From an uncultured Clostridia bacterium (GTDB taxonomy: Bacteria; Bacillota; Clostridia; Christensenellales; CAG-314), in the NCBI GenBank assembly GCA_947629985.1, contig CANRFV010000001.1, forward strand, positions 49,329 through 113,328: 64,000 bases of DNA. Reading direction: 5' to 3'. This document shows, piece after piece, positions 8,368-48,900 of the stretch. The notes below the pieces were generated by a model. The model saw nothing but the letters and a program-made list of their open reading frames with translations. It made no database searches and was not told the DNA's origin. Position numbers and translations under genes: made by a program. The first letter of the stretch is position 1, and each line of letters opens with the position of its first letter.

Positions 8368-8406
8368 CTCTATTTATTATTGTAATATATTACATAACAA
8401 CTAAAT

Positions 8407-31300: not shown

Positions 31301-34300
31301 CTTTCATCTCAGCGGGAACGTTCTCACGGAGATTTTTCTCCACCGCTTCAAACGCCTTGACTTTTTCTTCGCTTGGCTTTCTGAAATTCGTTTCGTAGTC
31401 CTCGTTGGTTTTGTCCTTGATCGCCGCGACGAGTGTCGCGGCATCGAGGTCGATCACCTTGTCGTCGCCTTTGAGATGTGCCGTGAAATCTTCGGGAATA
31501 CGCAAGTCCAAACCTTTCTCGCTCTCTTTTATAAAGCCGTTTGGGACATAGCAAACAAGTCCCGCATATTCCCCTTTCGGCATCTTCAAGAGTGTGCTGT
31601 TTTCGTACTTGTGCAGAACGGCTTTCTCGTTCAACGGAACGGTCTGCCACTTCGTTTGTTGTTCATCTTCGCCCTGTTGTTCGCGGTATTCGTCCATTGC
31701 GGTCGGCTGACGTTTATAGCTGTCTGCGTTCGTCTTGCCGAGCAACTCCGCGAACTGCTCTCCCGTGAACTGAACTTTCTCGTCCCCTTTACGCAAGGTT
31801 ACATTGAAGTTCTTGCCGATGTTCGCCGCAATGTCGCCCTTCTCCGTATCGGTATTTTCTTTGATGACCGAATTGGGAAGATAGTAAATGTACCCGTCGT
31901 ACCCTACACCGTTCGGTGCGGCAAAAAGCGTCGTACTTTCATAGGTTTTCATTACCGCTTCTCGTGGAATGACAATATTGTTCCTCTCGCTCTGCGGCGT
32001 AGCATATCTTTCCGATGTCGAGCCGTCCACAAGGGCGATGAACTCCTTTGCCGACAATTCCTTCTCGTCACCATCGCGGTTTTTGAGCCGAACGATTTCG
32101 TCCTCTGCGATAGCGATTCCCCATGCACTTTCGCTCTCATCGCCTTGACCATCCAATGGAATTACGGTTTCCCACATGCGATTTGTGAATACGTTGTATG
32201 TGTAGTCCTTGTATTCAGGGTTATCCTGCGGCATTTTCATCCACGTCCACCTGTTGTAGATGCGAATGACCGCATCTGTGCTGACCTTGTATCTGAGCCA
32301 ATTTCTCTGCGGTTTTGTTGCCGCTTGTGCCTGTGCCTGATTTTCGGGCATTTCTTTTTCTTCCTCCTTAATTTCTGATTTTTGCTTCTCGTACTCTTTT
32401 CTGATATCGTCCGCGACCGAGTTCACCAACACGGGATGCGCCGAAAGATGCAAACCTGCACGGCTTCTTTCATCTCCCGTAAGCGGAACAGTTCTCGCCC
32501 ATTCCTTGTTCTCGTCCGTGTATCGCTTGTCCCAATCACTCTGCGTTATCGTCGATGCGATAATGTTAGAAACGCGATCTATGCCGTACTTCTCGACGAA
32601 ACCCTTGACAAACTCCTTGTTCAGAATGTTATCTTTGAAGTTGTTGCCGATTGCTTTGTCAAGTTCTTCCTTACACTCCTGATTGAGACGCATTGACCAC
32701 CTGTACTCTGCAATTTCGCCGTGTTCAAGCGCATACTCCGCTGTTTGCATATATAGTGGCTCGGCTCTCCGAACTGCCACTTGCATGCTCTCGATGTTTC
32801 GGACGGGAATTTTCAACTCTTCCTCTGCAATGTCGCGGTCTAACTTCAAGAACTGAATGTTGTATTCATCCAACTGCTCTTTTGACAGGTGGCAAGTGGG
32901 CGCAACGATGATGTACCGACTTGTCTCTCTTTTGATTTCTGCAAGATTCTCTCTGTTTAGTGCCGGCAAGAAGTAATACGCTGTTCCGTTTTCATCATTG
33001 CCGAAGTAATACGTTTGTTCGCCATTAAAAAGAAGCGGTTGTTCCATGATATCATCGTGGAAATGCTCGTTGTATCCTTTTATAAATTGTGCTGTATCCC
33101 AATATGTTTCAACGCTCACTCCGTCTCTATCTATAAATTCATCGTAGAGTAACCGCAAAACATTTCCGCGTTCCTCGTATAAGGCACGAAAATCCTTCTC
33201 TGTTAAATCTTCTCCGTCTTGTATGGTGTCGCATAGTTCCGTGTAGATGTGTATTTTATAGTTGTTCAGAAACACTTCTTCGGGAGACTTGTTCAACATT
33301 TTCGCTTTGAAGTCCGCGAACTCATTGGCAACACTATCTTGGACGATCTGCTTATATACAAGTTCCTCTCCCGTGAAATTCTCAATCTGCTCCGCATGGG
33401 GATATTCCTGTTCCAGGAAGTCCTCGGCGGCTTGATAACTTGTAAAGTCGTAGTCGCCCTGCGCCCATTCTCCCCTACGGTCGTTATAACCACGGGCAAC
33501 GATATAGTCTTTGTCTCCGTTTGTGCGCTCACGACGCAAAATCGCGTGTTTTCTTTCACCGTCATCAAACACTGCAAGGACAGGATAGCCTTGCTTGGAT
33601 TTTTTCTTAAAGTTCCCTTCAACTTCAATATCGTCAAGCATTGCCGCCGTGAACGGATCTTCGTCCGCGAAGTCTTTGGGGTTTTCCTCTTTCATTGCTT
33701 GCTCGTAGTTTTCTTTCTCTTCTACCAATTTTTTCTCCTCAATCTTTACTGCCTCTTCTGCGTATATACGAAGCTCGTTATCAAAAATGTTTCGTGCGAT
33801 TGCTCTCTTTACATCAGCCAACGTCCAACCATAGGCTTCATACGGCACACCACCCAACCTGCCTTTCTGTTCGGAAATGAGATCCATAATGTACGGTTTC
33901 GTTTCATCCGCAGTCGGTGGCTCAATACCTTTCAAAAACTCGTTGAGTTCTGTTTTTTCCTCGAAATTGCTGTCCGATAACGGGTCGGTAAATTTAGCAT
34001 CGAAGTAGTCCATTTCACGATTGAGAAGTATTCCATTTGCATCTGCCACCACTTTCCTTGCGTACAAGTAAGCCACTCCTTCTTTTGAGTTTATAAACTC
34101 GTTCCAGTCTGGCTTTTCCACGCCGAAGATGCCGTTATGCACTTCAATGTCGTTCTCGCTCTTGACTTCGCTTTCCGTATCATTTCCGTAAAGTGCATAG
34201 AGAGTTATATGGTTCAATAGGGTTTTAGCCATTTCTCTGCGAACAGGCAGCATACCATTCCATTTGTAGCCATAATCGTTCATACTTTCTTGGCTTATCG

Positions 34301-37300
34301 TGCGGTCGGGTAAAACTTCGACTTGCATTTCAGCCACTTTATCTTCGTTTTCTATAAAATCTACCTCCTTTACCCGTGGAATAGGCTCTATTACGAGTGT
34401 TTTTTCGCCACGGTCAACGAGCTGTGCAACATAATTATCAAGTTCGCTTTCCTTGATAGGCAACACTGCATAACTTTTCCCGTCCACTATTTCCGTCTTG
34501 ATGTGCAAACCGTTTTCGGCAGCAAACCGTTCCGCTTGCTCTCCAATCAAGTCATATCCGTCGCCATTCTTATAGAAGATGTTGACGTTGGGATTCTGTT
34601 CAGCCTGCTTATTGATTTGCTCGGTCGCAATATTGTCTAACCGTTTTCTCGGTCTCCCCTTTTGTGTTCGTTCGTTTCTATCAGGTAATACCGTATAGTT
34701 TTCACCATCCGATGATCCACCCTCATCTTCGATAATGACTTCTTCTCGCTTATCCAAATTAAGTTCGGCATTAAGTTCAGCCTGTTCTTTCAAAAGTTCT
34801 GCAAGATGCTCTTCATGTTCAAACGGCTTTTTTACTTCTTCCTCGGCTATCGCCAAGTTCTGACGTATTTGTTCCAACTTCTGAGTCATTCGTCTCTCGC
34901 GGTTTGAAAAGTCCTCTATGAAGTTCTCAAACCTTGTAAGATTACCGCTTGCACTTTGTCCGATGTTCATTCCATACTGACCGCTTCCTGCTATCGTTAC
35001 CGTGCGCTCCGCCCCTATCAATACTATTGGATCTATCGAGATTTTGAAACCGCAATACTCCGCAACAACTGTTTCCGGGCTGCTTGCATAAAGAGCTTCC
35101 GTAAGTGCCTTTCCGCCCTCTTTTTTGTCGGTATAAACTTTGCCGTTTACGCTTATCTCAAACGTTTCGGGGTTGTACTTCTCTTTAAGCATCGCCGTAT
35201 CTTCCCGTACACGTTCAATAAGAAGTTCCTGCCGCCGTATCTCTTCGGGGAATTTCTTGCGGATATTGTCCTGCAATGCGTAAAGGTTTTTACGGTATTG
35301 TCCCTCTAATACTCGTAGCCTTGCCACTTCTGCATCCACTTCCATTTTCCGTTTGATTCTCGGATTGGCGGCTGTGATTGCTTTGATTTCCGCATACGAA
35401 AGCGTTCGGTCGTCAATGTCCTCTGCCTCTCTCACCGTCAGGTCGCCTCTGTCGATTTGTGAAATAAACCTCTGCTTGTTTTCCAAGATTTGATAAGAAT
35501 AACTATCAAATGTTCGCTCGGTAACGTAAGTAAAGATTTGTACCTTTTCGTTAATGTTGCCTTGACGAATAATTCTTCCCTCACGCTGTTGCATATCGCT
35601 CGGACGGTAAGGCGTATCGAGATGATGAAGTGCCACAAGTCGCTTTTGTACGTTCGTTCCTGCTCCGCACTTTTCCGTACTTCCTATAAGCACTCGCACC
35701 GTGCCGCCGTTTACCTTGTCGAATAAGGCTTGCTTCTGCTCATCGGTATTAGCATCGTGAATAAACGCTATTTCTTCGGGCGGTATTCCACGCTCAACGA
35801 GCTTATGTTTCAGGTCGTTATATGCGTCAAAGTCTTTGCCGTACTCGTATTCCTCGTACCTGCATTTAGGCGTTGATAAGTCGCAGAATACGATTTGTGT
35901 TCCTTTCTTTTCCGTGGACTGCTCCCATACCTCATAGACACGGGCGGCGCACTCATTGAGTTTGCTTCCCTCCTCGTCGCTTGCCGTATCGACATAACAT
36001 CTCGGATCGAGAGCAAGTTTCTTGCCGTCGGAAGTAACCTTTAACATATTGTCAATGTGAGGATCAACGCCGCCACCGTTTATTCTGTCCGCTCTTTTTG
36101 CTATCTCCTCTGCAAGATCGACCACCGTGTCGCTCGGTTTGAGATTTACGACGATGCGCTCCGCTTCGGGTACGTCGAGCTTTACCATATCTGCCGTCTG
36201 CACATCGGCAAACGAACGATACATAGTCAGTAGTTCGGGTAAGTTCGTAAACTTGCTAAATCTCGTCCTTGCCTTGTAACCTTGTCCACTCGGCGCAAGT
36301 TCAAGCGACGTTACAGTTTCCCCGAAATCTGCCGCCCAGCTGTCAAAGAAGTTAATTCCTGCCTCTTGTAGTACGGACGGCTGTAAGTAAGATTGCATTG
36401 TGTACATCTCGGTCATTGAGTTGCTTATCGGTGTTCCTGTCGCAAACACAACGCCCCGGTCGCTTCCGTGTTTTTCCTGCAAGTATTCGATTTTCAGTTT
36501 TAGGTCGCTTGCTCGTTGGCTTGCCGCCGCCGAAATTCCTGCCACATTGTTCATCTTCGAGTACAAGAACAAGTTTTTGTAGTAATGCGCTTCGTCGATG
36601 TATAGATAGTCCACGCCAAGACTTTCAAAGTTCAGAACGCTGTCCTTGTCCGAACTATCCATCAATTTTTTGAGCTGTGCTTCCTTGCTCTTTTTAATGC
36701 GCTCCAAGTTTTTGACTGCGCCACGAGGCATCTCGCTTTCTTCCCACGTTTTCTTTACGGTCATTTCAATTCTTGCGATTTCTTTTTGCAAGTTTTCTAT
36801 CTGCCGCTCCGTCGAAACGGGGATTTTAGCGAACGAGCTTTGAGCGATGATGATTCCGTCCCAATCGCCCATTGCGCATTTAGAAACGAACTTCCTGCGG
36901 TTATCCTTTTCCAAGTCCTCTTTTGTAGCAATCAGAAGTTTAGCGTTCGGATAGAGCTTTCTCCATTCAGCCGCCCATTGCTGTACAAGGTGGTTTGGAA
37001 CGGCTACCATTGCCTTGTTACAAAGTCCGTACTGCCGCATTTTCATAATCGAGGCAATCATTGTATAGGTCTTGCCTGCGCCGACGACGTGATGTAAAAG
37101 CGTACTGACTTTGCCCGATATTATTCGATGAACAGCATTTTTTTGATGCGGTTTTAGTTCTATTGTCGGGTTCATCTCAGGAAAGCGCAAATACGAACCG
37201 TCAAAACTCGGAAGCCTTATCCTATTGAACAACGAATTGTATGTCCGCTCCAAGTCCTCTCGGCGTTCGGGGTCAGCGAATATCCACTTCGCAAATTCCT

Positions 37301-40300
37301 CCTTTATCTTGTTCTGTTTTTCCCTTGCGGCAATGGTTTCTGCTTGATTGATAACTCGCTTCTCTTTACCGTCTGCATCCTGTATCGTGTCATAAATTGT
37401 TGTCGCTCGTAGGTTTAGCAAGTCCTCAAAAAGCCTATACGCCGGTGCCCGTTTTGTTCCGTAAACCTCCTTTTGCTTCATATCTGTGGTATATCTAACA
37501 TGCGCTTTTTGGTCAAGCCGCCAACTACTATCATGCGGATTGTAAAAAAGTTGAAAGTCGTGCCGAAAATACCAAGGAAGCCCTATGAGTTCTCTGTAAA
37601 ATTCCTCGTAATATTTTTTGTCAACCCAACTTGCGCCAAGTCGAACTGAAATTTCTCCTGCGGTAAGTGGCGTAGGCTGTATTTGTTCCAATGCAGCGAC
37701 ATTCTTTTGAAAGTCGGGATGTTCTGTTGCATAATCTCTCGCTGTCTGCAATTTTGATACAACTTGTCCCGAAAGATATTCTTCTGCCGTCTGAAAGCCC
37801 GAATACTTATCTCCGTCTACTACCGTATCTGGATCACGAAAAACCGCATTTCCAAGTTCGGACAAAACAGTGTCGTAATCCTTTTTCGTCAGTTCTTCGA
37901 TGTACGAAATATCTACTCTGCCACGCTCGTTTTGAGAAATCTGTAATGCCTCAAAGCAGTCATCCGTGCTTGTTACAGCCGTGTACGGTCTTATTGTCCG
38001 TTTTGTGAAGATGTCCGCTTTGAATATGACTTTGGTTTCCTCGTCAATATCCTCACAAGCAAAAAGAAGTGCGCTATCGCCATCTTCTTTGAACAGTTTT
38101 GTGTTCGTTTGGCTGTTTACGTTACCGTACTTTTTTACGAATGTGTCATAGTGAGCGTTGAGTTGCCTTTGTTCAAGTGCTAATACTTCATCCGAACAGC
38201 CCTGTATCTGAATGTCGAGAATATGGTGAAGTTCCTCTCTGAGTGCTATCATAGCCACGATACGTTGATATGCGTCTTTCGGATATTTGGGAATAGCCTG
38301 TTCGACCATTTCTTCCCCAATACGCATATACAATCTTCCGTTCTCCGCCTTGTAGCACAGGTGCTTAACATTGTAGTCCACTTCCGTCGTCTGTTCGACT
38401 TCGGGCGACTCTTGTGGTGCATCGAATATTCCTTGTGGCAACTTCTCGATTGCTTCAATCAATGCTTCTGAGAGCGGTCTGCCGTCTGGTTTTACAGTTA
38501 TATTCTCGGTATTGTATAGCCCGTGTTCTTTGGCAAGAATTCCGAGTATCATTTCGGGGTGTTTGATAAAGTAGTTATTTATCTCAAACCCCGCTTCGGT
38601 CGTACCTGTGGATAACCACTCTGTATTCTCTGTATTTGCATTAATACGCTCGTCGCGCTTTTTGAAAAACAAAATGTCCGTTATTACATCTGTTCCCGCT
38701 GTTTGCTTGAAGGCTGTATTCGGAAGTCGTATCGCACCGAGAAGTTCTGCCCTGTCTGCAAGATACTTCCTTGCATTGGGGTTAAGTTTATCCATAGTGC
38801 CTTTGCTTGTAACCACCGCCATTACGCCGCCTGCTTTGAGTTTGTCTATACTCTTTGCAAGAAAGTAATCGTGGATGTAGAAGTTGTACTTGTTATAATC
38901 TGTATCAAAGACCGAGTAGCCACCGAACGGCACATTTCCCACAACAACATCAAAGCGATCATTCGGAAATGTGGTATCTTCAAAACCTTTGATTTGGACG
39001 TTAGCCTCAGGATATAACTTTGTCGCTATTCTGCCCGTAAGATTATCAAGTTCAACACCATACAGCTTTGAACCGTCGGCTATTTCCTGCGGCATATATC
39101 CGAAGAAATTGCCCGTTCCCATAGCGGGTTCGAGAATACGGTTGTTGCCTTTTATGCCGAAACGTTCAAGCGCATGGTAGATACCACCGATAACTTCCTT
39201 TGATGTGTAATGCGCATTCAGGGTGCTACCCTTTGCGCGCTCGTAGTCCTCTTCCGAAAGAAGTTCTTTCAGCTCTGCATATTCCCTGCGCCACTCTTCG
39301 TTTTTCTCATCAAAGACTTGTGAAAGTCCACCCCATCCCACATATATTGCCAAAATTTTCTTTTCTTCGTCCGTGGGATCACGATTCTCTGCATATAATC
39401 TGTTGACGAGTTTGATTGCCGCAACATTGTTACGGAAACGTGTTTTGTTTCCACCAAGTTCTTTTTGTTCAAAGCCGATTTTGTTCAAATCGGTCTGTTC
39501 GGGCTTGCGTTGTTCCGCTTCCCGCTGTGGTGATAAGTCAATGACTACCTCTCGCAGTTTAATACCGTTTTTGAGAAGTTCGTCCCTGTCAATGTTCTGC
39601 GTTACGGTGTAGGGCTTTCCGTCCAAAGACTTTTTCTGCGAGCAAACAACCTCGTTCGGGTATATGCCCTGCAAACCTGTAACAGTCAGCGTATCGCCTT
39701 TGTAAATGTATTTATCCCCGACTCTTATCTCTCCCGATGCTGTGTTTCCTTGTTCTTTCTCGGTTTCCTCTTCATCGCGCTCCCCATCTTTCCATTCGTA
39801 GTTGGGACAGTAACTCAGATAGAAGTTCGTATCAAAACTGTCATCGTCAAGAACAACGTCCGATACTTCTTCTCTTTCTTCAAGTGCATCAGCAATCTCT
39901 TCTTTGTGTTCTCGAACAAACTGTTCGTCGTCCTTAAACTCGTCGAAATAGACGATCCAATTACCCTCGCTTGTGTTCTCCGTTCCCTCTTTTACGATGT
40001 CGTCTACAATGCTTTTGATTTTTTGCTTTATACGATCATCTGTTTTTTCGAGGTTTTCTTTACGTTCCCACGCTTTCCAATATCTCGGATGCCACCTTTG
40101 AAGCGACTCGTCAATGCCTTTGTTCCAATCCTTGAAAAATTGCTCTTTCTGCTCGTCGGTCAATGTATCGAATGGTACATAGTCATCTATGTTGCCTGTA
40201 TGCTCTAAATTGACATAAGAATGTAGAAAGTAAGCGTTGTCTTTCTGTAATATTCCCTTGTCATAGAGTTCTCGAAGCGGAATCGCAGCATCGCAATCTT

Positions 40301-42764
40301 CTTCGTAGCAATAGTAGCCGTTGTACATGTCTGTCCGATTTGCAAGTGCTTCGCCTGTCAGAATTTTCTCTGCCAATCCTGCCACTATCATAATGCCGCC
40401 GTGTCCGTCCGTGGATACAGAGTAAATACCATTTGCTATCGTTGTACACGATTGCACTTCGTCCCACGGTGAACTGCGCGGAATTAAGTTAGACGACTGT
40501 TGATTCTCTTCGATTATTCTTTTAGCTTCGGGGGATAATTCCTTAAAGCGATTTAACGTTGACTCTGTTGATTGACGAGGAGTAGGTCGTAATTTTCCCG
40601 CACGGATTAACTTTTCCCAATCTTCATCTTCTTCCGCATCCAAATCTCGACCGTCAAGTACGGGTATCTCCTGTTGCTCATCATCGATATACTTGTCGTT
40701 CTCAATCAAAGTACAAACCCTATCCGCAAAATCGTTCCACGTCAGTGTATAACGATCCTGCGTATTTCCCGCGGAGTTGTATCTTGTAATCCACACAGCA
40801 GCCGCATCGTACCTTGCCCGATAGCCATCACCACTTTCGATACTTGTACCGTATTCGTTGGACAGAAACTCAGCAAATGTAGTAAGTTCCGTTGTTTTGG
40901 CATATTCATCCAAAATTCGTTGCTTTCGATCTGCCGTTGTCCTTTTGATGATTTTACCGATAAAAGCGTTTTTGTCCTTTTCTGCTTCTTCTTGCTCCTG
41001 CTTTTCCCTTTCCTGCTCGGCAACATACTTCGGATATTCTTTCTTCTCCTGTTCGGTCAAGTAATTGTCATCATCAATAAGATCAGCTATGCGAACGGCT
41101 ACTTGATTCCAATTCAATGAAACGGTTATAAGTTTTTCGCCGTTTTCCCCACAGACGGACATTTTGATGCCCTTTGCATCGTGATTTTCGTCATCTCCAC
41201 CCCATTCGCTGTGTCCACCCCAACCGTATTCTTCTTTCAGAAACTCGGCAAACTCATGTTCGGTTGGATTCTCATTGTATTTGTCATAGATACGATATTT
41301 TCCGTATTCTACTCCGCTGCCATACTTTAACTGTCGCTCGATGAGAGCTTCTTCGGGCGACTGCTCCTGTTGCTCCTCCATAAGGTCAAAAATTGACAGC
41401 TGTGAAATATTTTTCCGTTTCCTATCCTTTATAGGTTTAGCATTTCCCGATGTGGTTCCTTTCTTTTTATCGGACTTGGGCTTTTCTTCGCTTAAATCTT
41501 CGGGATAATCTTCCTGTTCGCTTGCATCCGAAACGTCGTCATCGTCGTTCTCATACTCATCTTTTATAGGAAAGTGTGTGTCTATATCTCCGACATAATC
41601 CGGCTGTTTTTCTTCGTCATCAAACGGACTTGGTTCATCGTCCGTTATCTCAGTAAGCATTGGCATTTTTCCCATTGCTTCATCGTGGGATAGAATATAT
41701 CTTGCTTCTTCGTCCGATGCTTCTATCCAAACGATAGGATGTTTTTCAAGGATTTTTTCGGTATATAACTCTGCTACGTGATATGGAAAACCGCACATCG
41801 GCGCACGCTCGTCCTGCGCCACAGTTCGCCCCGTAAGTGTAAGGTCAAGCTCATCAGCAACATCTTCCGCCTTGTCGCCAAATACTTCATAAAAATCTCC
41901 GAGTCTCTGAATTACGACCGCCTCAGGGTATTTTTTCTGTTCGTCCAAATACCGCTGATAATACGGCTTATATTTCGGCTGTTCAACCTGTTCGGTTGGC
42001 TCATCCATAGGTTGGTCGGACGTATCTGTCTGTCCGACAGGTATCTCCGTCTGTTCAACGGGAATAGGAACTTTGTCCGTTGTGGTTTCGTCTTCCGTGT
42101 CATCAATAACATTGACTGCTTGCGCCCTACGCTCAAAAGCGTCCTCTATTTCCTGCGACAGAAAATCTGCCGTCATGTATATCTGCTTGAACAGTTCGGC
42201 ATTTTCCTTGTAGGAATACGGCAATCCGTTAAGCATGATTCCATTGTCTTTCGGAAAACCTGTCTTGCAATACAAAGAGTAAGCCGTTCCCTCTATCAGG
42301 AGTCCGTCATAAGTTTCGTTGCCCGTAAGTCTGCTCTGTTCGCGCAGATAGGTCTGTACTCCACGATGTATCTTTCGATAGTCGCTTCGCCCGTCGCCTT
42401 GCAAAGACGTACCGTTCAGTTCGTCCAAGCCTTCGAGCATCCGCTTCAACGGATAGAACAACCGCTGATACCTTGCGTCTCCGTTTGTATCTTGCGCGTC
42501 GAATACGAAACCTTTGTTGCCATCGCGGTCATAATACGGGATTCCTTTCTTGCCACGAGTAATGCGCCTGTCCATAGCGTTCCACTCTTCAAACGAAAAG
42601 CAGACGGAAGCGTTTGGACGGTTAATAACAATTTGGCAAGCCTCGTAAAGTTCGATGTGCGGATTTTGCGCAGAAAAACGATAGAAGTTGCGAAGTTGAT
42701 TTCCATCCGCAAGCATCGCGGCAACAAGTTTATTCCGTTCTTCCAAACTTATTATTCCGCTCAC
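30420..42764 (-). CDS. 4114-aa polyvalent ICE protein (ArdC-N-like, MutS-I-like, DarB-like N6-methylase + SNF2 helicase, DUF3848/3849-like, PrimPol + PriCT)
   Basis: A single uninterrupted 12.3-kb ORF. The motifs are listed in the domain features below. Confidence 0.95.
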   Translation of the reverse strand: MSGIISLEERNKLVAAMLADGNQLRNFYRFSAQNPHIELYEACQIVINRPNASVCFSFEEWNAMDRRITRGKKGIPYYDRDGNKGFVFDAQDTNGDARYQRLFYPLKRMLEGLDELNGTSLQGDGRSDYRKIHRGVQTYLREQSRLTGNETYDGLLIEGTAYSLYCKTGFPKDNGIMLNGLPYSYKENAELFKQIYMTADFLSQEIEDAFERRAQAVNVIDDTEDETTTDKVPIPVEQTEIPVGQTDTSDQPMDEPTEQVEQPKYKPYYQRYLDEQKKYPEAVVIQRLGDFYEVFGDKAEDVADELDLTLTGRTVAQDERAPMCGFPYHVAELYTEKILEKHPIVWIEASDEEARYILSHDEAMGKMPMLTEITDDEPSPFDDEEKQPDYVGDIDTHFPIKDEYENDDDDVSDASEQEDYPEDLSEEKPKSDKKKGTTSGNAKPIKDRKRKNISQLSIFDLMEEQQEQSPEEALIERQLKYGSGVEYGKYRIYDKYNENPTEHEFAEFLKEEYGWGGHSEWGGDDENHDAKGIKMSVCGENGEKLITVSLNWNQVAVRIADLIDDDNYLTEQEKKEYPKYVAEQEREKQEQEEAEKDKNAFIGKIIKRTTADRKQRILDEYAKTTELTTFAEFLSNEYGTSIESGDGYRARYDAAAVWITRYNSAGNTQDRYTLTWNDFADRVCTLIENDKYIDDEQQEIPVLDGRDLDAEEDEDWEKLIRAGKLRPTPRQSTESTLNRFKELSPEAKRIIEENQQSSNLIPRSSPWDEVQSCTTIANGIYSVSTDGHGGIMIVAGLAEKILTGEALANRTDMYNGYYCYEEDCDAAIPLRELYDKGILQKDNAYFLHSYVNLEHTGNIDDYVPFDTLTDEQKEQFFKDWNKGIDESLQRWHPRYWKAWERKENLEKTDDRIKQKIKSIVDDIVKEGTENTSEGNWIVYFDEFKDDEQFVREHKEEIADALEEREEVSDVVLDDDSFDTNFYLSYCPNYEWKDGERDEEETEKEQGNTASGEIRVGDKYIYKGDTLTVTGLQGIYPNEVVCSQKKSLDGKPYTVTQNIDRDELLKNGIKLREVVIDLSPQREAEQRKPEQTDLNKIGFEQKELGGNKTRFRNNVAAIKLVNRLYAENRDPTDEEKKILAIYVGWGGLSQVFDEKNEEWRREYAELKELLSEEDYERAKGSTLNAHYTSKEVIGGIYHALERFGIKGNNRILEPAMGTGNFFGYMPQEIADGSKLYGVELDNLTGRIATKLYPEANVQIKGFEDTTFPNDRFDVVVGNVPFGGYSVFDTDYNKYNFYIHDYFLAKSIDKLKAGGVMAVVTSKGTMDKLNPNARKYLADRAELLGAIRLPNTAFKQTAGTDVITDILFFKKRDERINANTENTEWLSTGTTEAGFEINNYFIKHPEMILGILAKEHGLYNTENITVKPDGRPLSEALIEAIEKLPQGIFDAPQESPEVEQTTEVDYNVKHLCYKAENGRLYMRIGEEMVEQAIPKYPKDAYQRIVAMIALREELHHILDIQIQGCSDEVLALEQRQLNAHYDTFVKKYGNVNSQTNTKLFKEDGDSALLFACEDIDEETKVIFKADIFTKRTIRPYTAVTSTDDCFEALQISQNERGRVDISYIEELTKKDYDTVLSELGNAVFRDPDTVVDGDKYSGFQTAEEYLSGQVVSKLQTARDYATEHPDFQKNVAALEQIQPTPLTAGEISVRLGASWVDKKYYEEFYRELIGLPWYFRHDFQLFYNPHDSSWRLDQKAHVRYTTDMKQKEVYGTKRAPAYRLFEDLLNLRATTIYDTIQDADGKEKRVINQAETIAAREKQNKIKEEFAKWIFADPERREDLERTYNSLFNRIRLPSFDGSYLRFPEMNPTIELKPHQKNAVHRIISGKVSTLLHHVVGAGKTYTMIASIMKMRQYGLCNKAMVAVPNHLVQQWAAEWRKLYPNAKLLIATKEDLEKDNRRKFVSKCAMGDWDGIIIAQSSFAKIPVSTERQIENLQKEIARIEMTVKKTWEESEMPRGAVKNLERIKKSKEAQLKKLMDSSDKDSVLNFESLGVDYLYIDEAHYYKNLFLYSKMNNVAGISAAASQRASDLKLKIEYLQEKHGSDRGVVFATGTPISNSMTEMYTMQSYLQPSVLQEAGINFFDSWAADFGETVTSLELAPSGQGYKARTRFSKFTNLPELLTMYRSFADVQTADMVKLDVPEAERIVVNLKPSDTVVDLAEEIAKRADRINGGGVDPHIDNMLKVTSDGKKLALDPRCYVDTASDEEGSKLNECAARVYEVWEQSTEKKGTQIVFCDLSTPKCRYEEYEYGKDFDAYNDLKHKLVERGIPPEEIAFIHDANTDEQKQALFDKVNGGTVRVLIGSTEKCGAGTNVQKRLVALHHLDTPYRPSDMQQREGRIIRQGNINEKVQIFTYVTERTFDSYSYQILENKQRFISQIDRGDLTVREAEDIDDRTLSYAEIKAITAANPRIKRKMEVDAEVARLRVLEGQYRKNLYALQDNIRKKFPEEIRRQELLIERVREDTAMLKEKYNPETFEISVNGKVYTDKKEGGKALTEALYASSPETVVAEYCGFKISIDPIVLIGAERTVTIAGSGQYGMNIGQSASGNLTRFENFIEDFSNRERRMTQKLEQIRQNLAIAEEEVKKPFEHEEHLAELLKEQAELNAELNLDKREEVIIEDEGGSSDGENYTVLPDRNERTQKGRPRKRLDNIATEQINKQAEQNPNVNIFYKNGDGYDLIGEQAERFAAENGLHIKTEIVDGKSYAVLPIKESELDNYVAQLVDRGEKTLVIEPIPRVKEVDFIENEDKVAEMQVEVLPDRTISQESMNDYGYKWNGMLPVRREMAKTLLNHITLYALYGNDTESEVKSENDIEVHNGIFGVEKPDWNEFINSKEGVAYLYARKVVADANGILLNREMDYFDAKFTDPLSDSNFEEKTELNEFLKGIEPPTADETKPYIMDLISEQKGRLGGVPYEAYGWTLADVKRAIARNIFDNELRIYAEEAVKIEEKKLVEEKENYEQAMKEENPKDFADEDPFTAAMLDDIEVEGNFKKKSKQGYPVLAVFDDGERKHAILRRERTNGDKDYIVARGYNDRRGEWAQGDYDFTSYQAAEDFLEQEYPHAEQIENFTGEELVYKQIVQDSVANEFADFKAKMLNKSPEEVFLNNYKIHIYTELCDTIQDGEDLTEKDFRALYEERGNVLRLLYDEFIDRDGVSVETYWDTAQFIKGYNEHFHDDIMEQPLLFNGEQTYYFGNDENGTAYYFLPALNRENLAEIKRETSRYIIVAPTCHLSKEQLDEYNIQFLKLDRDIAEEELKIPVRNIESMQVAVRRAEPLYMQTAEYALEHGEIAEYRWSMRLNQECKEELDKAIGNNFKDNILNKEFVKGFVEKYGIDRVSNIIASTITQSDWDKRYTDENKEWARTVPLTGDERSRAGLHLSAHPVLVNSVADDIRKEYEKQKSEIKEEEKEMPENQAQAQAATKPQRNWLRYKVSTDAVIRIYNRWTWMKMPQDNPEYKDYTYNVFTNRMWETVIPLDGQGDESESAWGIAIAEDEIVRLKNRDGDEKELSAKEFIALVDGSTSERYATPQSERNNIVIPREAVMKTYESTTLFAAPNGVGYDGYIYYLPNSVIKENTDTEKGDIAANIGKNFNVTLRKGDEKVQFTGEQFAELLGKTNADSYKRQPTAMDEYREQQGEDEQQTKWQTVPLNEKAVLHKYENSTLLKMPKGEYAGLVCYVPNGFIKESEKGLDLRIPEDFTAHLKGDDKVIDLDAATLVAAIKDKTNEDYETNFRKPSEEKVKAFEAVEKNLRENVPAEMKAKPNWVIVRTSENKDTGRFDKYLIDVHTGKAAKSNDASTWTDFDSACQYAKENGGVALAYALDGQDNIVCIDVDDCIDEVGNINSVGATTAGFGNGTYSERSISGKGLHVFGKMQNLDVRAFSKDGDLEFYQDKHFIAMTGNPLTSVTSKELKDLDKTGMREFISQKCEKRTEWKGVGAGIDGLSVMYDREVLDRAMSAKNGDTFKRLYNGEDIRNNHSNSDMSLMNQLAFWCRHDKDQMLRIFATSGLYRPDKPQSYYEYTAMKAVKSSPAYNPPKASNSAPKSSGGGNGKV
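31395..32310 (-). repeat. Three tandem copies of an unassigned ~90-aa domain inside the giant ORF
   Basis: The copies start at LRYKVSTDAVIRIYNRWTWMKMPQ..., IVIPREAVMKTYESTTLFAAPNGVGYDGYIYYLPNSVIKE... and QTVPLNEKAVLHKYENSTLLKMPKGEYAGLVCYVPNGFIKE.... Each ends ...V.L...EF..L. Confidence 0.5.
34385..34590 (-). other. Domain: second, divergent MutS domain I-like module (aa ~2726-2793)
   Basis: NIFYKNGDGYDLIGEQAERFAAENGLHIKTEIVDGKSYAVLPIKESELDNYVAQLVDRGEKTLVIE has the same spacing as copy 1 but with GDGYD in place of GDFYE. Confidence 0.4.
35480..37160 (-). other. Domain: SNF2/DEAD-like superfamily-2 helicase (aa ~1870-2430)
   Basis: LKPHQKNAVHRI, motif I VVGAGKTYTM, motif II YLYIDEAHYYKN and motif VI QQREGRIIRQGN. 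Together with the methylase this gives a phage P1 DarB-like arrangement. Confidence 0.85.
38650..39470 (-). other. Domain: gamma-class N6-adenine DNA methyltransferase (aa ~1100-1370)
   Basis: Motif I is ILEPAMGTGNFFG (about 39099-39137) and motif IV is VVGNVPFG (about 38919-38948). Confidence 0.85.
41720..41965 (-). other. Domain: MutS domain I-like module, copy 1 (aa ~267-348)
   Basis: YYQRYLDEQKKYPEAVVIQRLGDFYEVFGDKAEDVADELDLTLTGRTVAQDERAPMCGFPYHVAELYTEKILEKHPIVWIE follows the MutS N-terminal mismatch-domain pattern (GDFYE.F..DA......L...LT.R.....PM.G.P.H....Y...L...G..V...E). Confidence 0.6.
42464..42704 (-). other. Domain: ArdC-N/DUF1738-like ssDNA-binding module (aa ~20-100)
   Basis: SVCFSFEEWNAMDRRITRGKKGIPYYDRDG resembles the ArdC-N pattern [FW]xTFxQ...G..V.KGEKG. 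The match is weak. Confidence 0.4.
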
Positions 42765-43337: not shown

Positions 43338-43769
43338 CTATTTCAAAAAATTTTTGAAAATTTTATTGTAAGCCGCAATCAAGCGCTTTCTCACCGCCTT
43401 TTCGGAAACATTAAGCATTTTGGCAATTTTGACTTTTCTAATGCCCTTTATGTGATGCAGTATGTAAACCTCGCGTTGTTTGTCAGTCAACAAGCCCATA
43501 ATTTTTTGACTTAGTTCTTGCGCCTGCTCCTCTTGCAAAATACGATTCAGCGGATTGGCATCTACCAACGGCTCTTGTCCAACTTCGCGCAACTGTTCCA
43601 ACGACACATCTGCTTTTGTGGACAGACCTGCTCGCTGTTTTTGTTTTTTGACTTTCGCTTTGTAGTTTTTCTCTTGTGCGTCAAGCTGTTCAAGCGCAAG
43701 TTTCACTTCATCGCTCACCTCAATTTCTTCCGTATGACCATCGGCAAACTGATATAGTACCTTTTCCAT
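43338..43769 (-). CDS. Sigma-70 region-4-type transcription factor (Tn916 orf7-like ICE regulator)
   Basis: LTDKQREVYILHHIKGIRKVKIAKMLNVSEKAVRKRLIAAYNKI is a region 4.2 HTH. It has an AGGAGG RBS. Confidence 0.75.
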   Translation of the reverse strand: MEKVLYQFADGHTEEIEVSDEVKLALEQLDAQEKNYKAKVKKQKQRAGLSTKADVSLEQLREVGQEPLVDANPLNRILQEEQAQELSQKIMGLLTDKQREVYILHHIKGIRKVKIAKMLNVSEKAVRKRLIAAYNKIFKNFLK

Positions 43770-44020: not shown

Positions 44021-47000
44021 TCATACATACAATTCTTTCCTGTCATTAAGTATGACGGGCAGGGACGCCAAGATGTTAGCCGAGGCGGTTGAGTTTCCGT
44101 TGTGCCAAATCACAATGTTGTCAAGTTCGTGTTCTCCGCTGTCGTCCCAACGCCAACAACCCGCTATCCAATCGCGGAAATAGCCAAAATAATCGGAGTA
44201 GCTATTACCGCAAGGATTGTTGCCGGGATCGTTCGCAGAATAAACAAACACTTTTCCTTTCAACAACACGTCCTCTCCACGCATAAACAGCCAAGCACAT
44301 GTAAGAATTTGATCGAGCGGACGTTCGATATACACCGCTTTCAGCGCGAGGTCACCGTCAAAGACACCACCGGCAAATTCATAAAATTTCGTTCCTCTTA
44401 TAATTACCGTTTCTAATGATGTGCAACGCGCAAAGTTACCACCGCCAAGGATTTTTACACCCTCGCCCAATTCAACGCTTATTAACGATGTACAATCCTT
44501 ACACATATCTATCCCGTATGATTGAACGGTATTTGGAATTACAAGGTGTTCAAGCCGAGAATTGGCAAAACAGGATATTCCCAGTGTTTCAATCGTACTC
44601 GGTATCTCTATACTAGTGCCCAAGTATCCGTAAAAGGAAAACCCACCAAACGCTTTCAAACTCAATGCGCGTCCCCAATTAAGTTTAGCCGCAGTTCCGT
44701 CAAAAGCATGTTCACCTATCTTCGTAAGATAGTTTGTCATCTGAACGCTTGTCAGGTTGGTGCAACCGGCAAACGCATAATTGCCAAATTCAGACACCTG
44801 ACGAGAGAACGTAAGCGTTATTAGTTCCGAATGTCCGTCAAAAGCATGATCGCCAATGACGGTAACGTTATCCGGCACATTTACCGTTTCCGCATATCCG
44901 TAATAAGACTTCAATGTGTTGCCCTGTATCTCAAAGATATGAAATCCGCAAACAGAACATTGTTCCATACCTTCGGAGAAATCGAATACGCCGTCATTCA
45001 ATTGATAGACGTGCGGCTGCATACCAAATTCGGCTCCGCAACCTGAACACGCATAGTAATGCCCTTCGGCATTGGCAGACAAAGAATCTTGCTGATCGTG
45101 AGGAGTCTTTTTGCCCGCAACACCGTTGCTGTCTTCGATATAGGAACATCCGTCATCTGTACAACGATACCAGTGATAATCATTGTCACGAGTCAGTTCA
45201 AGATGATGTTCGGCAACGACCGTAAATGTAAGTTCGTTGACAGTATCGCCAACCTTGATCGTAACAGTTACCGTCTTATCTTCACTATGTTCCTGCTTGG
45301 CGACGGTGAAGGTAAGAGTATTGGAAGTCGCGTCATAGGAGTAAGTAATATAGCCGTCCTCGTTACCTTGGTAGGAAACATAAACTTCGTTCTCTCTTAT
45401 ATTCTTAAATGGAACGGTAAATAACCTTGCCGTTGCCTTTTCGCCACGATGCAAATTCGTATCTCCGTTGAAGCTCAACACATAATCATCGGCAACGTCT
45501 TTATCCAAACGGTCGATGAGTAGTACAGGTCTATGCATGGACAGGTCTATCGTCAGAAGATATTCGGCACGAGTAATGATAACAATGTTATTCTGATCGC
45601 CACTTGTGACATCGTAGTCGCTCGTCCATCCGCCGTAGTTGATATCGCTTAGCTCTTCTACAAGATTGACTGTATTAATCTCACCCGTCCAGGTGTCGGG
45701 ATCCATACCGAGGAACACGATCTTAAACTTGCCAGAATCGCCGGAAACAGGCGGAACGAATTGTAACGTGTATTTTGTAGGACTTATCTGAGTAAAGGTA
45801 TATTGCTGCCGAGAGCTTCCCTGTGTAGTCGTTACGTCCTGACCAAGTGCTGTCCATCCACCGTATGATTCACCTATCACATAAAATTGATCGGAATAGA
45901 ACAACACATCAACGACAGCCGAAACAGACGAATCGGCAAGAGACACCGCCTTGATTTTAATTGTACCGAGAGAGCGGGCGGTAATTTGTCCCGTGACGGA
46001 ATCGACTATGGCGCGCGTGCTTGAAGGATGAGACAACAACGCAGAGTAATCCGTCACATCGTAGTAACGCACCTGTTGATTGGTCGCATCAGAATTGACA
46101 GTTGCTTTGACAGTCGTAGTCCAATCTCCAACGCCGTTGTTGACGTTGACTTGGTAACTATTTTGTTCAAAACGTATCGAACGCACCGGCACTTCGGAAC
46201 TACCGCTAGATAAAACATAAAGTTCTACCGACGACTCAACTCCGAGAATCGCTATCTTTACCTCAACAGTAAACTGTTGCGTGATCGTTCCGCTGACCTG
46301 CACGACAAATTGTCTTTGCGCAAAGTTGAGTTTGCAACTAACAAACCTTTCGCAATCTACAAAATCGGAATGTACCTCAATGGAAATATCCGACTCCGCG
46401 AGTTTTACATTGGCGGGAGTAACGACAAAACCAAACGTAGAACTGCCACCACTGCGAAGAACGTAGTCGCCCTGCGACAAAGAAATTTCGACAGACTGAA
46501 CACCCAACGACACCAAATTGATGTACACCTGCGCTTTGGAACCGGTGAGGTCTAACGTTATCTTGTACACACCGGGAGCGTTTACACAAAGATGATCCAC
46601 CGCATTGGAAATGTAACTATCATCGGAACGAGCGGCATTGTAATAATAGTCGGATGATACCCATTGAGACGGAATATTTTTGTTCCATACGTCCTCGTTC
46701 TTGGATTCATCGTGTTGCGTGAAGTTTGCCACTTGTGGGAATATGATCTGGAAGCCGTTGTCGGGAGTGAGATAGCGCGTCAAGGAGTAAACGCCCTTCT
46801 GCTCTTCCTGCATCAATACTTCCGCTTGTGCAGCGCCTTCGCGGTCGGTAGTAAAGGACCAATCCCAATCGCTGTTGCCCAATCCGTAACCGTAAATGAA
46901 GAAATATTCGTCGGTTACAAGAACGCTGCATCTTGCCGTATAGCTGTGGCTGTTGCTATCGTAGACAGTGGCAGTTACCGTTGTCGAACCGAAGTTTACG

Positions 47001-48361
47001 CCTGTAATCGTGGCGGTATCGCCATTGCCGGAAACGGTAGCCACATCGCTGTTGGAAACAGACCAAACAACACGAGACAATTCGGCATTGACAAGAGATA
47101 CTTTCAAATCGGTTGACGTGCCGATGTACACTTGCGCACTGCTCTGCATATCCGCCAAAACTGTGCCCTTGGCAAGCACTTTGACTGTACAGGTTGCCAC
47201 AAGGGAAGGATCTTCCGCAGAGGTTGCTTTGATCGTGGCTGTGCCTGTCGCTTTACCCTTGACAGACACAACGCCCGCGCCGTCGTCTTGTACGGAGACT
47301 AACTCACTGCCGCTTGTTACGGACAGCGTGTAAGCCGTATTTGTGGCGTCAGCGGGGGAGAATACAAGGCTGACTTGTCTTGCAGCGGCTTCCGCCACCA
47401 CTGTGATGGAATCTTCGCTGAAACTGATAGATTCGACGTGCCTGACAACTGTTACCACGCACTGGTCGGTGTAACCGCCCTGTGCCGTGCTGACCGTGAT
47501 AGTTGCCTTGCCATAGCCGACAGCTGTAACAACGCCTTGTTGGTCTACGGTTACAACGCTGTCGTCATCCACACTCCAAGTTACAAGCCGACTGTTTGCT
47601 TCCAAAGGCAAAACGGTCGCGGTAAGTTGCCGTTCATCGCCGAGTTCCAAAGAAAGTTCCTTTTGACTGAGTTGAACGCCGTTGACTTCGACGCTGCTCT
47701 GTTCCACCGTGATATCGAGCGAATCACTGAGTTCGCCTATCGTTGCGGTCAGCGTTGCGTTGCCGACGGCAATCGCTTGCACTTCGCCTTGCGCATTGAC
47801 GGTAAGCACCGCACTATTGCTCGAAGCCCAAACGGGCGTTTCTTCTGCGCTTGTTCCGTCGGAATAGGTTACGGCAGCCTTGTAGGCATACTTGTCGCCG
47901 ACATACAAAGTGGATACTTTGGTTGTGATCTCCAACGAAAGGCGCTGTGTGGTAAAGGCGTATTCCAACGTGTTTTCCGCTTGATCGTAGGAGAAAACAT
48001 AAGTTCCGCCATGCGCTACCTTTACACTGCCTTCATCGCCTTGCACCAAATGGTTTTCCGCAGAGAACATACTGTCGAAGCCTATCTTGCCGTCATCGCC
48101 CACATTGCGAAGAAAGAACTGTTCTCCTTGTGCAAGCGTAACGGTCAACATGTATATATCGTTACCCGCAGACTGAAAATGCAATCTTTGTGGTATTTTT
48201 TCCTTAGAATCGTATGTTTGCCAATTCTCCGATTGGAGCGACAAATAGTATTCTTTTGACGTATCGTCCTTGCGACAGGCAGCGACCGAAACGGTCAACA
48301 GCGCAACAAGCAAAAATACGCAAAGAATGGATAAGATATGATGTTTTTTTGTTCGTAACAC
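44021..48361 (-). CDS. Giant surface lipoprotein: multiple Big_2 Ig-like domains, Cys modules, C-terminal BspA-type leucine-rich repeats
   Basis: I take the GTG start at 48361, which follows GAGGAGGG. The lipobox is LLTVSVAAC. There are at least 5 Big_2-like units (e.g. VTWSVDDDSVVTVDQQGVVTAVGYGKATITVST). Cys modules include YHWYRCTDDGCSY, HYYACSGCGAEF and QCSVCGF. LRR units include VTVIGDHAFDGHSELITLTF and NYAFAGCTNLTSVQM. Confidence 0.85.
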   Translation of the reverse strand: MLRTKKHHILSILCVFLLVALLTVSVAACRKDDTSKEYYLSLQSENWQTYDSKEKIPQRLHFQSAGNDIYMLTVTLAQGEQFFLRNVGDDGKIGFDSMFSAENHLVQGDEGSVKVAHGGTYVFSYDQAENTLEYAFTTQRLSLEITTKVSTLYVGDKYAYKAAVTYSDGTSAEETPVWASSNSAVLTVNAQGEVQAIAVGNATLTATIGELSDSLDITVEQSSVEVNGVQLSQKELSLELGDERQLTATVLPLEANSRLVTWSVDDDSVVTVDQQGVVTAVGYGKATITVSTAQGGYTDQCVVTVVRHVESISFSEDSITVVAEAAARQVSLVFSPADATNTAYTLSVTSGSELVSVQDDGAGVVSVKGKATGTATIKATSAEDPSLVATCTVKVLAKGTVLADMQSSAQVYIGTSTDLKVSLVNAELSRVVWSVSNSDVATVSGNGDTATITGVNFGSTTVTATVYDSNSHSYTARCSVLVTDEYFFIYGYGLGNSDWDWSFTTDREGAAQAEVLMQEEQKGVYSLTRYLTPDNGFQIIFPQVANFTQHDESKNEDVWNKNIPSQWVSSDYYYNAARSDDSYISNAVDHLCVNAPGVYKITLDLTGSKAQVYINLVSLGVQSVEISLSQGDYVLRSGGSSTFGFVVTPANVKLAESDISIEVHSDFVDCERFVSCKLNFAQRQFVVQVSGTITQQFTVEVKIAILGVESSVELYVLSSGSSEVPVRSIRFEQNSYQVNVNNGVGDWTTTVKATVNSDATNQQVRYYDVTDYSALLSHPSSTRAIVDSVTGQITARSLGTIKIKAVSLADSSVSAVVDVLFYSDQFYVIGESYGGWTALGQDVTTTQGSSRQQYTFTQISPTKYTLQFVPPVSGDSGKFKIVFLGMDPDTWTGEINTVNLVEELSDINYGGWTSDYDVTSGDQNNIVIITRAEYLLTIDLSMHRPVLLIDRLDKDVADDYVLSFNGDTNLHRGEKATARLFTVPFKNIRENEVYVSYQGNEDGYITYSYDATSNTLTFTVAKQEHSEDKTVTVTIKVGDTVNELTFTVVAEHHLELTRDNDYHWYRCTDDGCSYIEDSNGVAGKKTPHDQQDSLSANAEGHYYACSGCGAEFGMQPHVYQLNDGVFDFSEGMEQCSVCGFHIFEIQGNTLKSYYGYAETVNVPDNVTVIGDHAFDGHSELITLTFSRQVSEFGNYAFAGCTNLTSVQMTNYLTKIGEHAFDGTAAKLNWGRALSLKAFGGFSFYGYLGTSIEIPSTIETLGISCFANSRLEHLVIPNTVQSYGIDMCKDCTSLISVELGEGVKILGGGNFARCTSLETVIIRGTKFYEFAGGVFDGDLALKAVYIERPLDQILTCAWLFMRGEDVLLKGKVFVYSANDPGNNPCGNSYSDYFGYFRDWIAGCWRWDDSGEHELDNIVIWHNGNSTASANILASLPVILNDRKELYV

Positions 48362-48549
48362 TTTGTTGCCCTCCTCTTCTTCCACCGCCTGTACAACAAA
48401 AAATCCGCAAGGACTTGTTTGCGTACCCGTCAAATGCTGCGCCGCGCAATAGGCGGCGCAGACTTGAACGAGAATTGTTGTCCACGCCCTGTCGGAAGAA
48501 CGACAGGGTAGGACACAAAGGCGAAATGGAAATTTCGCTTAGCCAAATA

Positions 48550-48654
48550 CTATTCGGCAGAAGCTGTGGCGGACACGAAGTTGAGTTCGACACCCGTCAA
48601 AATACCGTCGTCATTAACAATTGTTACATTTGTTCTCAAAATTGCCTTTTTCAT
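48550..48654 (-). CDS. Possible 34-aa small ORF in the intergenic region between the two surface-protein genes
   Basis: Below the track cutoff. The ATG at 48654 follows GGAGAA with 6-nt spacing. The translation is MKKAILRTNVTIVNDDGILTGVELNFVSATASAE. Confidence 0.3.
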   Translation of the reverse strand: MKKAILRTNVTIVNDDGILTGVELNFVSATASAE

Positions 48655-48900
48655 ATCAAATTCTCCTTAAAATATAGTATTTTGTCCAATCGGGTGGAAC
48701 CGCCCAGTCCAAGGTATTGCCTTGGACGTTGGTGCTTTTGCACCGAGTAACATTGATACATTTCGGCCGTTTTCGCCACCGACTTGCGCCACTTAATTAT
48801 CCCATTGGTGTAATCCTCCTTTCTACATATTTGCACCTTGTGCATCTACTTGCCGAGACATTTACACATTTAGTACATATAACAAATCATCTCATAGGCA

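Follow-up and report, generated by a model that had tools for sequence, protein, structure and literature searches.

Polyvalent proteins were defined by Iyer, Burroughs, Anand, de Souza and Aravind (Iyer et al., 2017, J Bacteriol 199:e00245-17, PMC5512222), who described a methylase-SWI2/SNF2 dyad and primase-polymerase (PrimPol) domains in Tn1549-like elements of Firmicutes, and primases that are transferred along with the DNA. Outside MutS, the mismatch-binding domain I (MutS-I) was stated there only for polyvalent proteins of Bacteroidetes and Firmicutes; in these it is probably MutS-derived, is accompanied by ArdC-N in about 80% of cases, and may recognise short single-stranded DNA (ssDNA) of the replicating element soon after entry (Iyer et al., 2017). 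In MutS, Phe36 stacks on the mismatched base, the F36A substitution abolishes specific binding, and Glu38 hydrogen-bonds the same base; this Phe-X-Glu motif occurs in MSH6 and is absent from MSH2 and MSH3 (PMC3848065). Here we describe a giant polyvalent protein with two MutS-I modules, hereafter copy 1 and copy 2, encoded in a 64,000-nucleotide stretch of DNA from an uncultured Clostridia bacterium (GenBank assembly GCA_947629985.1, contig CANRFV010000001.1, positions 49,329 to 113,328 of the forward strand; the window).

An initial annotation of the window had placed the two modules at the right positions, but the plus-strand reading of these is stop-rich, and the feature lies on the minus strand, within a single open reading frame (ORF) that contains both of the quoted peptides exactly. 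From the N to the C terminus, the protein comprises an N-terminal conserved domain, copy 1, DUF7007, an N6-adenine methylase, an SNF2/ResIII helicase, copy 2, DUF3848, DUF3849 and a PrimPol with an NrS-1-type helix-bundle domain. The two copies thus flank the methylase-helicase core, as had been described, copy 1 on its N-terminal side and copy 2 after the helicase. The ORF and its two MutS-I modules are laid out as follows.

30420-42764, minus strand: ORF of the polyvalent protein, GTG start, 4114 amino acids (aa)
41670-41966, minus strand: MutS-I copy 1, aa 267-365, canonical mobile-element type; the Pfam stretch is aa 267-345 (41730-41966)
41721-41918, minus strand: copy 1 peptide as first quoted, aa 283-348, an exact match in the ORF
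41886-41900, minus strand: Phe-X-Glu wedge motif of copy 1, G289-D-F291-Y-E293, equivalent to E. coli MutS F36/E38
34365-34676, minus strand: copy 2 module, aa 2697-2800, basic patch and wedge-less MutS-I-like domain
34641-34661, minus strand: basic patch KGRPRKR, aa 2702-2708, AT-hook-like, immediately upstream of copy 2
34389-34634, minus strand: structured core of copy 2, aa 2711-2792
34386-34583, minus strand: copy 2 peptide as first quoted, aa 2728-2793, an exact match in the ORF
34551-34565, minus strand: G2734-D-G2736-Y-D2738, the Phe-X-Glu position of copy 2, where Gly stands in place of Phe and Asp in place of Glu

Both modules are almost certainly homologous to the mismatch-binding domain I of MutS. 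The whole ORF matches the Pfam MutS_I profile (PF01624; length 113, curated gathering cut-off 20.6 bits) over two stretches (E=1.1e-23). In separate scans both copies exceed the cut-off, copy 1 with 67.3 bits (E 1.7e-18, over positions 2-80 of 113) and copy 2 with 28.0 bits (E 2.7e-6, positions 9-86 of 113). Against PDB sequences (phmmer), copy 1 aligns with residues 10-88 of E. coli MutS (E 6.6e-13), RLGDFYEVF standing opposite RMGDFYELF, and copy 2 with MutS 19-97 (E 1.7e-3). Furthermore, a jackhmmer search seeded solely with copy 2 recovers the N-terminal copy 1 in 121/121 giant proteins. The AlphaFold2 models of the two copies alike have a core pLDDT (predicted local distance difference test) >90, and when compared with the PDB by Foldseek, their top 50 matches are exclusively MutS/MSH domain I (best E 2.4e-8 for copy 1 and 2.4e-4 for copy 2; alignments covering about 77-110 columns), including MSH2 and MSH3 chains in the case of copy 2. 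The claim that the protein carries two MutS domain I modules is thereby borne out by profile, PDB sequence and structure comparison, the last of which gave no unrelated fold. It counts against the copy 2 model that the alignment used to build it held MutS-I sequences, so that it leans towards that fold and the comparison is partly circular; the Pfam, phmmer and jackhmmer results are independent of this model. A six-frame scan of the window with hidden Markov models built here (543 ORFs of >=50 aa) found no third MutS-I copy, with a background of <=5.6 bits.

The remainder of MutS has no counterpart in the giant ORF. Pfam finds no MutS_II to MutS_V domains there, and the NCBIfam MutS models (TIGR01070 mutS1 and NF003810) are matched only at positions 2-81, with 85 bits against cut-offs of 480 and 642, which agrees with the initial description of modules that stand without MutS ATPase, clamp or lever domains, and extends it to the connector. 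The protein is hence not a full MutS/MSH mismatch-repair ATPase. The two copies differ in the motif that reads the base: Phe-X-Glu is present in copy 1 (F291, E293) and absent from copy 2 (G2736, D2738).

Copy 1 is modelled as a helix, the GDFYE-bearing β hairpin, a helix, two strands, a helix and a strand, followed by a short strand-helix, and it is found at aa ~250-490 in 121/121 giant proteins examined. The GDFYE segment, whose presence had been pointed out at the outset, is retained and aligned to that of E. coli MutS, as are the LTxR and PMxGxP(xH) loops. Over 87 distinct copy-1-type domains (E. coli MutS numbering), the equivalents of G34 and D35, and likewise of M68, are found in 87/87, those of E38, and of G70 and P72, in 86/87, that of R58 in 85/87 and that of F36 in 84/87. 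Since the fold can do without the wedge residues, as MSH2, MSH3 and the copy-2 subfamily demonstrate, their near-invariance in copy 1 appears to be functional and not merely structural, and the pattern argues for a base-contacting function having been retained in copy-1-type domains. Purifying selection acts on copy 1: dN/dS (the ratio of non-synonymous to synonymous substitution rates) is 0.13-0.16 against two relatives and 0.09-0.10 for the whole protein, values that are approximate because dS is near 1, and mean identity among six relatives is 0.71, compared with 0.22-0.45 for linkers. Copy-1-type domains score higher against small solo MutS-I proteins (114-134 bits) than against true MutS (94-100 bits), and this closer relationship suggests a MutS-I clade proper to mobile elements.

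Copy 2 is divergent, as had been recognised. In the sub-clade formed by P0121-P0126, all six copy-2 sequences (6/6) have Gly at the Phe position, Asp at the Glu position and Glu at the Arg58 equivalent, and all six replace PMxGxP by (S/A/P)(V/I)(L/V)(S/P)(I/V)K. When the protein is compared by BLASTP with the copy-2-less relatives P0127, P0167 and P0187, aa ~2697-2800 stand out as a clean insertion of ~100 aa that includes KGRPRKR, placed after the C-terminal region of the helicase and before the next module; the flanks of this insertion, ...ENYTVLPD and KEVDFIENEDKVAEMQVEVLPD..., are contiguous in the three relatives. Within the set of 121 proteins, copy 2 is carried by P0121-P0126 and the window protein only. 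A pattern scan across 185,579 species genomes yielded one copy 2 locus, in a metagenome-assembled genome of an uncultured Clostridia, which is the P0126 sequence (L002). When the copy 2 profile was searched exhaustively with HMMER against 1.84 billion representatives, 73 matches reached E<=1e-3 and only 2 of these E<=1e-10.

The wider subfamily shares a signature consisting of a (K/R)(K/R)PR(K/R)xL patch followed by F(I/Y)xNGxxY(E/D), and copy-2-type modules occur after the helicase in P0249, P0251 and P0258, giants that also have an N-terminal GDFYE copy. The wedge position is occupied in this wider set by G, K, N or R, and by F (as FYE) in P0251. Judged by sequence, copy 2 is a member of a MutS-I-like subfamily of its own, in which the wedge residue varies. 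The initial annotation had called it a duplicate of copy 1, and this part is not established. The copy-1-type, the solo mobile-element and the true MutS profiles all lie equally far from copy 2 (19-35 bits), which leaves a recent intragenic duplication unsupported, and copy 2 is an insertion confined to one sub-clade and part of a separate subfamily. Copy 2 is under purifying selection and is not decaying, with a dN/dS of 0.11-0.15 (two relatives; approximate, with dS near 1) and a mean identity among six relatives of 0.68, compared with 0.71 for the whole protein and 0.22-0.45 for linkers. The basic patch is not present in relatives without copy 2; compared with the AT-hook core Arg-Gly-Arg-Pro, it reads KGRPRKR in the window and GKPRK, RKPRR or KRPHK in relatives. 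A MAFFT alignment had offered KVAEMQVEVLPD, which follows copy 2, as the last strand of MutS domain I. We rejected this assignment because these residues are part of the following module, one that directly adjoins the helicase tail in copy-2-less relatives, and because they have a pLDDT <50.

The protein that carries the two copies combines, in one large polypeptide, unrelated enzymatic and DNA-binding domains that include the adenine methylase-SWI2/SNF2 dyad, as in polyvalent proteins. Its enzymatic regions are the following.

38742-39137, minus strand: N6-adenine DNA methylase core, aa 1210-1341 (Pfam Eco57I and Methyltransf_25)
35559-37163, minus strand: SNF2/ResIII helicase-like ATPase, aa 1868-2402 (Pfam ResIII, SNF2-rel_dom and Helicase_C)
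30495-31322, minus strand: C-terminal primase-polymerase and helix-bundle domain, aa 3815-4090 (PDB matches; Pfam NrS1-1_pol-like_HBD)

The helicase region has partial NCBIfam matches to DrmD-like SNF2 helicases. The PrimPol region matches PDB entry 7ola (E 7.6e-24) and the phage NrS-1 primase (6k9a/6a9w, E ~1e-18), and a PrimPol with an NrS-1-type helix-bundle domain means that the giant protein could prime complementary-strand synthesis. An identical protein (100%; P0121), encoded on a 330-kb contig, is present in NCBI-derived data. Relatives of the giant number 1273 at E<=1e-10, and the precomputed Pfam annotation contains PF01624 in 120/120 among the matches listed.

Two further regions of the protein are conserved or repeated. 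The N-terminal domain (aa 1-230; window 42075-42764, minus strand) has 77% mean identity within the sub-clade and the invariants FYRF.AQN, C.S..EW.A..RR..KG and GFPK. Its aa 1-215 have no match in Pfam, and a profile search of PDB sequences with this domain found nothing. Compared with ArdC-N by hhalign, it gave a probability of 0.14%, which is not significant, with only a W...KG motif aligned; the domain could be a very divergent ArdC-N-like header. After copy 2, aa ~2800-3790 (window 31400-34360, minus strand) consist of internally repeated modules with the motif ...MQV(D/E)VLPDY..(S/T).E.M..YGY.W.GMLP...; these are repeated in relatives too (e.g. at 2696-2889 and 2988-3168 of P0127), in numbers that vary among them.

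The giant gene is encoded within a conjugative element that has relaxase and type IV secretion genes, again as in polyvalent proteins. From the type IV secretion, relaxase and recombinase genes and a gene order that is conserved in two relatives, we conclude that a Clostridia-type bacterium carries an integrative conjugative element at this locus; the element is Tn1549-like. The order of sigma factor, giant, ArdC-N/MPTase, MT-A70 and, further on, relaxase and coupling protein is the same in L005 and L006. The genes concerned are listed from right to left.

43338-43769: sigma-70 region-4 gene, upstream of the giant gene
27086-28795, minus strand: 569-aa protein with ArdC-N and a zincin metallopeptidase (MPTase) domain (Pfam ArdcN 75.5 bits, MPTase-PolyVal 126.6 bits)
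26534-27082, minus strand: MT-A70 methylase, directly after the ArdC-N/MPTase gene
25197-26201, minus strand: N6_N4_Mtase, an orphan DNA methylase
23291-24610, minus strand: MobL-type relaxase
21062-23290, minus strand: type IV coupling protein
15150-17789, minus strand: VirB4-like ATPase
8407-10134 and 10131-11906, minus strand: two tandem large serine recombinases (Pfam Resolvase, Recombinase and Zn_ribbon_recom)
6872-8131, minus strand: HipA-family kinase toxin, next to the serine recombinases

ArdC-N, the usual companion of MutS-I, is thus found in the adjacent gene, and aa 1-215 of the giant have no significant ArdC-N match. The large serine recombinases are the probable integrases of the element, and the HipA/recombinase region (6872-11906) is probably its left end; further left of HipA lie host genes (HU, phosphopentomutase-like, DacA-like and ScpA). 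Counting that of the giant, there are three methylases in the element, with no recognisable restriction partner within the window. Between the giant and the ArdC-N/MPTase genes, an AAA_14/DUF4143 ATPase gene lies on the opposite strand (29079-30377, plus strand); the same slot holds a different AAA_14/ATPase_2 gene with helix-turn-helix (HTH) and DUF3990 genes in L005 and none in L006, and appears to be a site for variable cargo. At 44021-51528 (minus strand), just past the sigma-70 region-4 gene, are two very large surface proteins (1470 and 875 aa) with Big_2 Ig-like repeats and BspA-type leucine-rich repeats, which may be element cargo or belong to the host; galactan-utilisation genes also lie upstream of the giant gene.

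MutS-I also occurs outside giants of this kind. A solo family of apparently complete proteins of 146-195 aa (P0002-P0009, P0019, P0021 and P0027) shares RLGDFYEVFGDNA, a linker of acidic character and, at the C terminus, a conserved tail, ...EEEMREFDGDIEEP...FD.SAFDK.AL..L.E.FG..L..R. One of them, P0007 (L001 1043-1579), is encoded between PcfK-like and PcfJ genes and adjoins DNA methylases, which is a conjugative-element setting, and small MutS-I proteins are also found in gut phage genomes (BFVD A0A8S5PPT8 and A0A8S5PL02). The presence of solo forms near PcfK/PcfJ genes and in phages fits a portable DNA-handling module of mobile elements. Other proteins (P0298, P0313, P0253, P0261, P0305 and P0227) have arrays of two to four MutS-I-like copies, mostly without GDFYE; the first five have three or four degenerate copies each, and P0227 has a tandem N-terminal pair (aa 264-350 and 396-475). 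On plasmid pB of Chroococcidiopsis sp. CCNUC1 (L003), a coding sequence at 34-6804 specifies a 2256-aa 'strawberry notch C-terminal domain-containing protein' with a MutS-I-like segment near its C terminus (L003 6001-6255; 40% identity to copy 1, E 8e-10). Most of the plasmid matches of copy 1 in tblastn were set aside as genuine mutS genes on megaplasmids or mislabelled chromosomes; the matches in Acinetobacter have no annotated gene beneath them and adjoin an IS1 transposase gene.

We propose that copy 1 is the DNA-binding head of a machine that works on the newly transferred element. The methylase, the SNF2 ATPase and the primase-polymerase are expected to act on element DNA just after transfer. 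Copy 1 would insert Phe291, and make use of Glu293, at sites that are easily kinked or unstacked, for which mispairs, hairpin bases and the single-strand/double-strand (ss/ds) junctions of the entering strand during its conversion to duplex are candidates, and would in this way keep methylase, helicase and primase bound to the DNA of their own element during or after entry. Copy 2 would no longer read bases; its part would be that of a folded adaptor or spacer, or of a platform that offers its basic arm to DNA. The initial annotation had suggested binding to mismatches or ssDNA junctions; for copy 1 this appears plausible and is in substance the published proposal (Iyer et al., 2017), and for copy 2 binding as in MutS is unlikely because the equivalents of Phe, Glu, Arg58 and PMxGxP are all replaced. 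We give the role of copy 1 as a DNA-distortion or ss/ds-junction anchor for the entering element about an even chance, and copy 2 is probably a non-base-reading adaptor or a basic-arm DNA binder. The account as a whole, that of a polyvalent protein of an integrative conjugative element with copy 1 as a DNA anchor and copy 2 as an adaptor or basic-arm platform, is the one we favour, if by a modest measure.

Several considerations weigh against this account. Binding of DNA by MutS relies in part on the clamp domains, which supply much of the DNA contact. It furthermore uses both subunits of the dimer (PMC3848065). With neither the dimer context nor the clamp in the giant, the isolated domain may have little or no affinity for DNA. 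Copy 1 has an acidic core (net charge -8, pI 4.6, compared with -2 for the E. coli domain I); that of copy 2 is acidic as well (-7) and lacks all of the MutS contact residues examined, and its basic patch is merely AT-hook-like, the GRP core being found in 2/6 sub-clade sequences. Transfer of the giant protein into recipients is assumed, by analogy, and our literature search found no experimental work on any mobile-element MutS-I domain. We had also considered a β-clamp motif in MutS domain I; a literature check gave no paper, and the idea was dropped.

One rival reading is that of a protein-interaction or scaffold module, in which the giants have reused the MutS-I fold as a neutral folded unit or as a docking site for another domain or a host factor; it would not itself bind DNA, and would retain the GDFYE hairpin for this interface. 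The acidity of both cores (net -8 and -7) would fit, as would the arrays of three or four motif-less, degenerate copies (P0298, P0313, P0253, P0261 and P0305) and the conservation of copy 2 despite the loss of all its MutS DNA-contact residues. However, acidic cores (-2 to -4) are likewise found in domain I of true MutS, so that charge alone cannot exclude DNA binding, and copy-1-type domains have near-invariant F and E at positions where the fold can accept other residues; we consider a purely scaffolding role unlikely, while giving it some weight. A chance resemblance, or a decayed and functionless remnant, could be suspected from the weak pairwise match of copy 2 (E 1.7e-3), but is refuted by Pfam scores above the cut-off for both copies (background <=5.6 bits), by folds that match MutS domain I and by a dN/dS of 0.11-0.16, and its probability is close to nil.

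The initial annotation had raised the possibility of a decoy, and indeed copy 1 retains the exact mismatch-contact motif, and solo forms are spread over conjugative elements and phages in a manner compatible with an anti-host role. The domains would then occupy mismatches, or titrate a partner of host MutS, and lower the barrier that mismatch repair poses to recombination. This proposal finds no support at the locus, where two large serine recombinases point to site-specific integration, and hence to establishment without a need for homologous recombination, the step that mismatch repair restricts; there is no obvious gain from relaxed homeologous recombination. Moreover, complementary-strand synthesis on a transferred strand makes no mismatches. 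The known sites at which MutS contacts MutL are in its connector and ATPase domains, domain I not being the MutL-binding part, and by Pfam and NCBIfam both are absent from the giant. Successful competition with MutS is not to be expected of a single domain that has neither clamp nor dimer partner, the literature search gave nothing in favour of the idea, and we regard the decoy as highly unlikely. Alternatively, copy 1 (MSH6-like) and copy 2 (MSH2-like) could pair on DNA as a pseudo-heterodimer in cis, giving an asymmetric grip within one polypeptide. Only one MutS subunit uses Phe-X-Glu, and in eukaryotes MSH6 has the motif and MSH2 and MSH3 do not (PMC3848065); the combination of an N-terminal GDFYE copy with a copy-2-type module after the helicase also recurs in P0249, P0251 and P0258. 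Yet about 114/121 relatives carry copy 1 only, the second copy of P0251 is still FYE, and the Arg58-equivalent position of copy 2 is acidic; attractive as such a pairing is, we hold it to be very unlikely. A further reading starts from a radiation of MutS-I modules peculiar to mobile elements, made up of canonical GDFYE copies in giants, solo proteins of 150-190 aa in conjugative elements and phages, and the wedge-variable subfamily with a basic arm before it. The modules would then be specificity-diversified readers of non-B or mispaired DNA, either pairing in cis like MSH6 and MSH2 or masking such sites from the repair and defence nucleases of the recipient. If true, they would not be simple tethers but would form a new class of anti-host shields for DNA structures; we think this improbable.

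Should the favoured reading hold, with copy 1 reading distorted DNA via Phe-X-Glu, it would show how the giant proteins of conjugative elements in gut Firmicutes find and hold the incoming strand, and it would bear on the establishment of these elements, which are major carriers of resistance genes. From copy 2, which has no wedge, and from the solo versions, one could learn, as from a natural experiment, what the MutS-I fold is capable of without the rest of MutS.

Comparison with known systems places the two copies as follows. For diversity-generating retroelements, a survey reported weak MutS_I-like extensions of the reverse transcriptases, and MutS-like (MSL) accessory proteins (Wu et al. 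2018, PMC5758913); these too are small MutS-related modules outside mismatch repair, but in a different type of element and with weak similarity. The ArdC-N domain of the anti-restriction protein ArdC resembles MutS-I as a non-catalytic DNA-binding head of conjugatively transferred proteins, although its fold is unrelated and its ssDNA binding is experimental, which that of mobile-element MutS-I is not. Domain I of eukaryotic MSH2 and MSH3 is like copy 2 in keeping the fold without Phe-X-Glu (PMC3848065), but MSH2 and MSH3 are full MutS-family ATPases in heterodimers, whereas copy 2 is an isolated insert with a basic patch upstream. Bacterial MutS domain I (E. coli MutS aa 2-115, PDB 1E3M and 7AI6; Taq, 1EWQ) has the same fold and is clearly homologous; its last ~20 residues are replaced by a shorter strand-helix in copy 1 and are missing from copy 2, and unlike bacterial MutS the giant is without connector, core, lever, clamp, ATPase and HTH domains. 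The closest likeness is to the proteins of Iyer et al. (2017), with which the window protein shares its nature as a giant of a Firmicutes conjugative element, the methylase-SNF2 dyad, PrimPol and MutS-I, with ArdC-N in the locus; it differs from their ArdC-N/MutS-I proteins in that ArdC-N is encoded in the neighbouring gene, the giant polypeptide itself giving no significant ArdC-N match. The core finding, MutS-I fused into polyvalent proteins, was thus already published in 2017 (PMC5512222). The motif-less second copy, the basic-patch subfamily, the multi-copy arrays and the solo MutS-I proteins are not in that text, and the solo proteins and the strawberry-notch protein of a cyanobacterial plasmid lie beyond the range reported there. 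The added value is modest, and consists in the anatomy of a second subfamily and a distribution of MutS-I somewhat wider than reported.

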